A stretch of 64,000 nucleotides of DNA, taken from assembly GCA_951406725.2 (NCBI GenBank), contig OX597826.1:75516001-75580000 (forward strand), written 5' to 3'. Position 1 is the first letter of the stretch, and every line of letters begins with the position of its first letter. Below the pieces are notes generated by a model, which was not told the DNA's origin, ran no database searches, and worked only from the letters and a program-made list of their open reading frames with translations. Shown in pieces: positions 41,801-44,800 of this stretch. The DNA comes from Octopus vulgaris. Lineage: Eukaryota. The translations under genes were made by a program, and so were the position numbers.

Positions 41801-44800
41801 GGCTTGGGAACCTGACGACTAAAGACAGAATGAGAAAAAAAGGACAAGGATACGGGTAATGTAATACATAAACCCAAATACACACACACACACACACAAG
41901 ATGCACATACACATATTAAAGACAGAACGAGAAAGAAAAACACAAGAAACTAAAGACACGGGTATAAACAATGTAATAATCAAATCCATATACACATAAA
42001 TCATGCATTCTAAACACACAGATAGACACACACACACGCACACACACACACACACACAAAGATACAGACTCAAACGCATGCACAAATATGGATACATACC
42101 ACAAAAAGACAAAATGGAATAAGCAGAACAAGAGGAGACACGTGGGATAGAGAGTCGCTGAAGAGGTCACAGGACGTGTGACGAAATAACTTTGACAAAA
42201 AAAACTAAAATGATAATTATAACGCTGAAGAGAAAAGGAAATATATACATATATATATACATCCCCATATATATATATATATATATATATATATATATAT
42301 GGGGGTGTATCCAATGAAAAGAATAAGAAAACAAAGACAATTCTTTAACACATCTATAATTATAAGTTGAAGTTCTTTCGCACCATCTCTATTTGCAACA
42401 CTAGTTTACACAAAAATTCTAAATGAAAATTCACGTAATGTTTACGTATATATATACATATATATATATATATATATATATATATATATATATATATATA
42501 TATATATATATATATATATATATATATTTCAATATGTGACCGCTTGTGTATTATTGGCGATTTTCTTTCTTCGTCTTCCCTTCCTTGTACCTTTCCTTTT
42601 TCTATGCTTCTGATGAAGAGCTCCGCTCGAAACGTTAAATCCCCCTTCTATCTTTACTTTCCTGAGCGTCCAAAAACACTATACTTGTTCCACGTCCTCA
42701 CGTTGTTGTTTTCTCTTTGTTCATGTTTGGATTAACTATATATATATATATGAATCTTCTTCCAGCGTTCGCTACCTTGCCTCGTATTGGCCTAACGGCC
42801 CACCCTGTTTGTCTTCGTTTGGTTTGGTTTGTTGTTTGTCTTGTTTTTGTTACCAACTTTGACCCTCCGCAAATCCCAAATTTTATTTTGGTTCGCGGGA
42901 GCAACTCACTTCAAAATCTTATATTGTCGTTCATTGCTAGAAATAAGGACTAGAAGGACAGCCCATAACTGATGAAGGGTCGTTTTTTATGTTACTTGTC
43001 TTGTTTTTCAATTTGTTTTTCTCGTTCTTTGCGTACCTAACTTTATTTTCGTATTTCATGTTGTTTACGTTTTATGATGTCCTGTATCCATATACGCGTA
43101 TCTATATACATATATATGTAGGTATGTACATATATGTATGTATATATGCATATAAATTTATACATTATTTATATTATATATATATATTCATATATATATG
43201 AATATATATATATATATATATATGTATATATATATATTTATATATATATCAATATATATATATGCGCTCGCATTTTTTAGCCTTACCCCGCTGGCTAAGC
43301 GAAGCAGGCCGACAGAAGAAAAAGTGAGAGAAAGTTGTGGCGAAAGAGTACAGCAGGGATCGCCACCACCCCTGCCGGAGCCGCGGGAGCTTAAGGTTTC
43401 GTTCAATACCACTCACAGCCGGTCTGGAATCGAACCGCGATCCTACGATGCTAACATATATATATATATATATATATATATATATATATATATATATACA
43501 TGTGGAGGCGCAATGGTCCAGTGGTTAGGGCAGCGGACTAGCGGTCGTAGGATCGCGGTTTCGATTCCCAGACCGAGCTTTGTGAGTGTTTATTGAACGA
43601 AAACACCTTAAGCTCCACGCGGCTCCGGCAGGGGTGGTGGCGATCCCTGCTGTACTCTTTCGCCACAACTTTCTCTCACTTTTTCTTCTGTCGGCCTGCT
43701 CGCTTAGCCAGCGGGGTGGTGTCATTTGAAGGCTAAAACAATGCGAAGCGCATTGTGACCAGCGATGTGTAACAGCATCTGATAGCCTGGTCGGTCACGG
43801 TGACGGTGATATATATACATATATATATATATATATATATATATATATATATATATATATATATATATATATATATATATATGTGTGTGTGTGTGTGTAT
43901 TTATATATATATATATATATATATACATATACATATATACACAGAGACACACTCACACAGACACACACATACGATAATGCGTAAGTAAATTGACAACTTT
44001 TACATCTATTGAGATTATCGTTAAATCCTGCGAAGATATACCTACTTCAAAGCTATAATGAGAACCAGAATATGCGGAATAGTTGCAGCATACAATAAAT
44101 GTTGCCATTTTCGAAGTAAATACGCTACACCAGCGAGAAGTGTTTCTCCAACGGCGAAGAATGCATGCAGACTGAAGTTCAAGCTCAATCTGTAATTCTG
44201 AGAGACATATTCGATCGCTGTAATAAAAAACAAATATCATGTTAATATTTCTTGATAATATATGAAATATATCATCTTATACAATACTAGCAGTATCGCC
44301 CGGCGTTGCTCGGGTTTGTAAGGGAAATAACTATATAAGCATTTTTAGAGAGTTATAGCCAAAAAATAGCAAAAAAATGCATTATAAATGGAAAAAAAAT
44401 GATGGTAATTTTTTTTAAAATCGTTGACTCATCGTAGACATTTTTAGAGAGTTACTTCCCTTATTTAATAGCGAAAAAATGCATTAAAATGGAAAAAATG
44501 ATGGTAAATATTTTTTTAAATCGTAGACTCATCGTAGACGCGCGCTAATACCCAGAAGGGCTCGATATGAATCACGACTAATAAGATACCCGGTTTTGGT
44601 TATACTGCACCGCAAAATGTGGGAGTAGTTAGGAATCTAAATCGTAGGAGACAGACACACAACCTTACTGATATATATAAAGATTATATATACTACAAGA
44701 AAAATTTTCTGCTTCTGTATGTAATGCGTATATCTATATACATATAGATATGACACATAAATTATAAAGTAAATTGACACTATGCACATGAATTGAACAA

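Follow-up and report, generated by a model that had tools for sequence, protein, structure and literature searches.

A (TA)n-associated repeat of Octopus vulgaris with a minimal hammerhead motif, probably the terminal repeat of a Penelope-like element

The locus and its repeats

The window, i.e. the whole stretch of 64 000 nucleotides of Octopus vulgaris DNA analysed here, contains two SLC22 genes arranged in tandem on the minus strand, in a setting dense in microsatellites and short repeats. The first gene (53321-35599, -) is complete and comprises nine exons, while the second (16493-3748, -) runs off the left end of the window. One of the SLC22 genes shows 91-100% identity to the O. sinensis protein in most of its exons, and the exon at 41169-41486 matches SLC22 organic cation transporters of O. 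sinensis (92%) and O. bimaculoides (80%).

Three copies of ~210 nt and a single 3' fragment represent the repeat considered here; scanning the entire window with a profile detects no copies beyond these four. Copy 1 (42528-42736, +), delimited by sequence comparison and profile search, lies antisense to the complete SLC22 gene in the intron between the exons at 44227-44045 and about 41513-41172 (both -). Copy 2 (30247-30470, +) is intergenic and represents a second subfamily. Copy 3 (14969-15178, -) is in the sense orientation in intron 1 of the second SLC22 gene, between the exons at 16493-16419 and 13100-12726 (both -), and the fragment (56929-57023, +) is located between two (TA)n runs. A sequence-only reading of the window had reported a repeat of ~200 nt at three loci together with a partial copy, and these four loci bear it out. 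The full copies show 76-87% pairwise identity and fall into two subfamilies, with copy 2 being 76-80% identical to copies 1 and 3. No domain or Penelope-like element (PLE) protein matches the copies, and hence no protein coding is seen in the repeat.

All four copies share a common 3' terminal base (..TTAAC) that directly abuts (TA)n, as in copy 1, where a run at 42737-42751 adjoins the fixed 3' end and a longer one (42446-42527) lies on the 5' side. The 5' boundaries of the three full copies, which include both subfamilies, are within about 8 nt of one another. The description of the repeat as bounded by (TA)n is accurate for copy 1 and the fragment, which are the only copies with TA runs on both sides, but does not extend to the 5' sides of the other two: copy 2 lacks a TA run on that side, where a (CA)n run ends about 65 nt upstream, and in copy 3 about 28 nt belonging to a different repeat family intervene between the unit and its 5' TA run. 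The 3' ends, four out of four, do support the proposal of a TA-microsatellite target, a preference that is not diagnostic of Neptune elements since it is shared by Hydra and Naiad. An inverted or partial-tandem partner of the type common in PLE insertions accompanies none of the four copies.

A second repeat family with (TA)n ends is stacked directly behind copy 1 (42753-43095, +) and recurs at 2174-2485 (+) and about 1995-2060 (-). The arrangement at 1995-2485, a short inverted 3' piece preceding a forward copy, is typical of PLE insertions. This family has the first hammerhead box only (42969-42975), with a GAAA about 25 nt upstream and no convincing fold. One short repeat family forms an inverted pair around a (TA)n run (43264-43448, -; 43501-43803, +), another family of ~220 nt has about 20 copies across the window, and a long near-perfect inverted repeat at 3360-3654 is probably a MITE or fold-back element. 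Transposon relics at 9487-10272 (+), 47824-48156 (-), 49445-49795 (-), 19587-20450 and 27105-27980 comprise two LINE-like 3' ORF pieces (assigned by eye, with no Pfam match), a Tc1/Sleeping Beauty-type HTH (PF25787) and a two-copy repeat of ~870 nt.

A decayed PLE of Hydra type occupies 24239-25946 (-), with a reverse transcriptase followed by a C-terminal GIY-YIG region and several frameshifts and stops. It aligns with proteins of about 700 amino acids across the reverse transcriptase and C-terminal endonuclease regions; Pfam recognizes neither frame, so that its identity rests on these protein alignments and on the motifs of its homologues. The marks of the Hydra clade are a C-terminal endonuclease, a DKT motif, a CxCX5C linker and the absence of CCHH. 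The relic retains DKT and has lost the second Cys of the linker, and its long homologues have RW[KR] in 46, DK[TS] in all and CxCX5C in 49 of 56 cases. About 300 nt downstream of the relic, near 23939 (-), is a degenerate stretch that resembles a hammerhead core of a design unlike that of the repeat.

The hammerhead motif

The minimal type I hammerhead motif predicted in copy 1 spans 42606-42640 (+). Stem I would be formed by 42606-42609 and 42637-42640, with one C.A mismatch (42607), and encloses a first catalytic box (42610-42616) that is followed by an extra A (42617), a stem II of 4 bp (42618-42621 with 42625-42628) and a GAAA box (42629-42632) followed by the palindromic CG. The predicted cut falls between 42636 and 42637. 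Each of the three full copies in the window has one defect in the motif. Copy 2 has perfect stems I and II, but C replaces U4 in its first catalytic box, and in copy 3 stem II is broken, two of its four pairs being lost. The CUGANGA and GAAA boxes are otherwise intact (copies 1 and 3), and stem I is 4 bp long in copies 2 and 3.

The minimal hammerheads of metazoan PLEs, as described in the sections of Cervera & De la Pena (2014; PMC4209133) drawn on here, have a short helix I, an unpaired base between positions 9 and 10.1, a G10.1-C11.1 pair and palindromic positions 15.2-16.2 with no helix III. The unpaired extra A between positions 9 and 10.1 is present in all three full copies, as is the palindromic 15.2-16.2 in the place of a helix III, and the G10.1-C11.1 pair is present in two of the three. 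The assignment to the minimal type I hammerheads of the Penelope-like kind, made in the sequence-only reading, is thus supported, and by the features tested the octopus motif is predicted to be a PLE minimal hammerhead.

A loose descriptor of the core has three matches in the window; in 40 order-3 Markov simulations the mean is 0.15 and no simulation exceeds one match. Identity between pairs of copies is 25/27 in the core versus 128/169 in the remainder, 24/27 versus 137/175 and 24/27 versus 153/176, so that the core is the better conserved part in two of the three pairs. The Rfam hammerhead search that had been proposed as a check gives no match: no hammerhead is among the best 150 of 247 matches over the whole window, nearly all of which are microsatellite-driven miRNA models, and 42560-42700 yields only four weak unrelated matches. 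In copies 1 and 3 the MFE structure of the motif lacks the full hammerhead fold. Folding single copies by free energy, or cofolding them as homodimers, yields no clean active dimer and is uninformative.

A family-wide view is provided by contigs from four public sequencing runs aligned to 42528-43095 (9895, 8095, 166 and 141 contigs); the aligned stretch begins at 42528 and upstream extensions of the unit lie outside it. Two of the runs are DNA. For the other two (X3 and X9) an RNA origin is no more than a guess, and their coverage does not count here as evidence of expression. In all four runs the majority letters are T at 42607, C at 42614 and C at 42640, which gives a perfect 4 bp stem I; T at 42607 accounts for about 99% of the depth in every run and C at 42640 for 60-82%. 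Both stems are intact in the majority letters, and the only change in the catalytic boxes among the 40 listed of 165 differences is at N7. The core quoted in the sequence-only reading therefore stands as a motif and agrees with the majority letters of stem I, but it is a composite that is present in no single copy.

Parentage and spread of the repeat

A search of metagenome contigs with a core pattern in which stem II was fixed and stem I unconstrained identified 89 loci. None shows similarity to the octopus repeat outside the 27-nt core, and the exact octopus core has no match in metagenome or viral contigs. In nine of the 89 loci, all from other animals, sequence of a Neptune-type endonuclease in the sense orientation ends 70-680 nt upstream of the core; three of the nine correspond to the query proteins, another two are apparently a single locus present in two assemblies, and only 49 of the 89 loci have at least 1 kb of upstream sequence. 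The CX2-5CxxC linker is present in the three query proteins. The largest family accounts for 68 of the 89 loci and by eye matches the published Neptune motif of Acropora digitifera. These associations support the link to PLEs that the sequence-only reading had drawn, and the sharing of the 27-nt core with distant animals indicates that the parent of the octopus repeat was probably of Neptune type.

Pairing in stem I, which the search pattern left free, was compared with shuffled flanks. Over 12 groups the first two positions are paired in 19 of 24 cases versus 12.7 +/- 1.6 in shuffles (p = 0.0003), and three positions give 25 of 36 versus 17.8 +/- 2.4, with different letters forming the pairs in different groups; over all 30 distinct flanks p is 0.02. 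The shuffles ignore relatedness, three singleton groups probably being truncated members of the big family. In addition, the register is wrong in the scoring of two groups, and one locus appears to be bacterial. Many members of the large family (L007, L008, L013, L014, L015, L020, L045, L052, L053, L057, L067, L082 and others) form head-to-head pairs whose 5' breakpoints lie 19-38 nt ahead of the cut site, within the hammerhead or immediately in front of it, a placement that is partly forced by the search pattern.

In the octopus the repeat is very abundant in the two DNA runs. Summed depth over the core is 1.1-2.0 million versus 10-58 for single contigs, a ratio of 2 x 10^4 to 1.3 x 10^5 that gives an order of magnitude only, depth not being a copy count. 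Both DNA runs contain a go-back joint that leads from 42641 to 42544 and includes an additional G (depths of 3346 and 210; among the best 15 of 35 joints and 12 of 23 between-letter differences, with the 3' end masked). The joint would give a 99-nt unit with one hammerhead per unit; it amounts to 0.02-0.26% of the core depth and covers only the 5' half of the repeat. The second (TA)n-ended family is also abundant in the run contigs and has its own go-back joint (42988 to 42830) in both DNA runs.

The repeat is likely to be the terminal repeat (pseudo-LTR/3' end) of a PLE, probably of Neptune type, that contains a minimal hammerhead and has been copied protein-less into (TA)n by the enzymes of a partner. 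As judged from known PLE biology, the GIY-YIG endonuclease of an intact, probably Neptune-type PLE would nick (TA)n and reverse transcription would start from a fixed point of the RNA, which together would produce the common 3' end. The common 5' boundary may correspond to the transcript start of a solo terminal repeat copied in trans, since its occurrence in two subfamilies suggests a transcript of the terminal repeat only. Lacking helix III, the hammerhead would need either dimerization or help from the protein of the element in order to cut. On the best reading the repeat spread as a mostly solo, very high-copy unit, with most genomic copies being decayed passengers. The window copies are probably inert, and a motif defect is carried by every full copy; copy 3, the sole sense-intronic copy, is the one with the broken stem II, a single case that says nothing firm about selection. 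The label 'non-autonomous' given in the sequence-only reading is plausible to the extent that random truncation of a 3-kb element would rarely leave three of three full copies with a common 5' boundary.

A variant of this explanation dispenses with a separate non-autonomous unit and regards the copies as plain, randomly 5'-truncated 3' ends of an autonomous PLE. Such truncation of the parent is possible because shorter copies exist, namely the fragment at 56929 and single contigs that begin from (TA)n or unrelated DNA at 42573 and 42603, and PLE insertions are reported to be mostly 5'-truncated. Summed depth also drops 17-30-fold from the core to the 5' end; however, this drop is confounded by the divergence of copy 1 and by edge effects of the aligned stretch, because of which it is not accepted as proof of truncation. 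The start of all three full copies within about 8 nt in two subfamilies is also difficult to reconcile with random truncation, leaving the variant conceivable but doubtful.

The rare joint raises the alternative of a true non-LTR retrozyme family, in which dimeric hammerheads would process a small number of tandem master copies into RNA circles one unit long, with the dispersed copies descending from these masters as monomers. The common 5' boundary of the full copies would suit such an origin, as would a 2026 preprint that, in the part used here, derives retrozymes from PLE terminal repeats and gives monomer shares of 0 to 1 (Li, Clavereau & Pollet, 2026; 10.64898/2026.07.22.740005). However, the joint makes up a small share, is confined to the 5' half and amounts to a single junction, not to an array that has been demonstrated; all dispersed copies are in one register and not in varied permutations, and the hammerhead is minimal and not canonical. 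Animal retrozymes are defined as tandem hammerhead repeats, in the wording available from Cervera & De la Pena (2020; PMC7229834), and because this defining organization is found in none of the four window copies the repeat is not classed as a retrozyme and the term 'retrozyme-like' in the sequence-only reading is not upheld. A retrozyme family thus appears improbable, and the joint hints at a small tandem offshoot such as the preprint envisages for the termini of PLEs.

The fragment at 56929 starts 2-3 nt past the position of the predicted cleavage site, a single case noticed post hoc. This suggests a more speculative and rather unlikely scenario in which the family records cleavage in vivo: copies resembling the fragment would begin at the scissile bond, the 3' product having been reverse-transcribed to its end, and the rare 99-nt tandems would supply the dimeric ribozyme. 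If so, the octopus would offer, across copies numbering in the tens of thousands, a genomic trace of a working minimal PLE hammerhead for the first time, together with a retrozyme in the process of emerging from the terminal repeat of a PLE. Among 35 further copies of the large Neptune-type family from other animals, three start within 3 nt of the cut site, with alignment noise being high.

A derivation from the decaying Hydra-type element of the window is very improbable. Hydra elements do carry hammerheads and insert into (TA)n, also in Octopus, according to the relevant parts of the literature, but blastn detects no nucleotide similarity between the relic, including its 3' region, and the repeat. 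In addition, the octopus Hydra hammerhead depicted in the consulted part of PMC8557442 has a 7 bp stem II and a real helix III, and the Naiad/Hydra supplement of that paper contains none of four short words taken from the repeat. The decayed Penelope element noted in the sequence-only reading therefore exists, but its implied connection to the repeat does not hold, and on sequence comparison the relic is a neighbour and not the parent. No Neptune-type coding relic is found in the window (best tblastn E value 0.16). An unrelated SINE or MITE with a coincidental hammerhead-like core, as the lack of an Rfam match and the MFE folds of copies 1 and 3 might suggest, is scarcely credible given the near-identical 27-nt core behind PLE endonucleases in other animals, the intact stems in the majority letters, the lack of a detected tRNA gene in the window and the lack of evident terminal inverted repeats in the alignment of the copies.

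Comparison with known hammerhead elements

The literature searched yielded no account of cephalopod hammerheads belonging to this family; Dfam, Repbase or the O. vulgaris library may already list it. PLEs constitute 6.83% of the O. vulgaris genome in 190 families according to a 2026 repeat annotation, which does not mention ribozymes, and the name Octopus does not occur in the single supplement file of PMC4209133 that was searched. The octopus repeat thus adds a family, apparently of very high copy number, to a class that has already been described. Minimal PLE hammerheads cut poorly in vitro, and in the one reconstituted element cleavage is assisted by the protein and dispensable. A family of this size allows computational tests of whether copy starts cluster at the cut site, an enrichment that genome-wide would constitute a footprint of in vivo cleavage, and of selection against intact sense-strand intronic copies.

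The non-LTR retrozymes outlined in PMC7229834 and in the preprint (10.64898/2026.07.22.740005) resemble the octopus repeat in being short and non-coding and in carrying a type I hammerhead, and the repeat is like them probably PLE-derived and PLE-mobilized. They differ in being tandem, classically with canonical hammerheads and circular RNAs in the accounts used, whereas the octopus copies are solo and minimal with a rare half-unit joint only.

The Poseidon element PAc of Anolis, as presented in the sections of PMC11167929 referred to here, likewise has a PLE hammerhead in a terminal repeat, an AT-rich target and a fixed start of reverse transcription that leads to a defined 3' end; AT-rich cleavage and fixed initiation sites were shown there with a reconstituted PLE. 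In the same account the PAc hammerhead cuts only with the protein of the element and is dispensable for insertion, and no RNA reads end at the cut site. PAc belongs to another clade, however, and unlike in the octopus repeat its hammerhead is described as overlapping the start of the ORF.

A preference for microsatellites is reported for Neptune, Hydra and Naiad elements, with (TA)n favoured by Hydra and Naiad in the passages relied upon. A microsatellite target is thus a feature in common with the Neptune-clade PLEs as characterized in part of Craig et al. (2021; PMC8557442), and in other animals the same core is found 3' of a C-terminal GIY-YIG domain with the CX2-5CxxC linker. Unlike the Neptune-clade elements of that paper, none of the window copies is joined to a coding part.

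The closest resemblance in the motif itself is to the minimal hammerheads of metazoan PLEs in the treatment of PMC4209133 cited above. There single motifs, which probably derive from truncated PLEs, are described as their commonest form in animal genomes, and in vitro their monomers remain uncut and their dimers are cut weakly. The octopus motif has all four of the features named in those sections beyond the catalytic boxes, its copies are mostly solo and its core is nearly that of the Acropora digitifera Neptune motif. It departs from them in a stem II of only 4 bp and in a unit that seems to have a fixed 5' boundary, and its abundance appears to be higher, with a rough order of 10^4-10^5 versus 2,000-9,000 motifs in the examples given in that paper.
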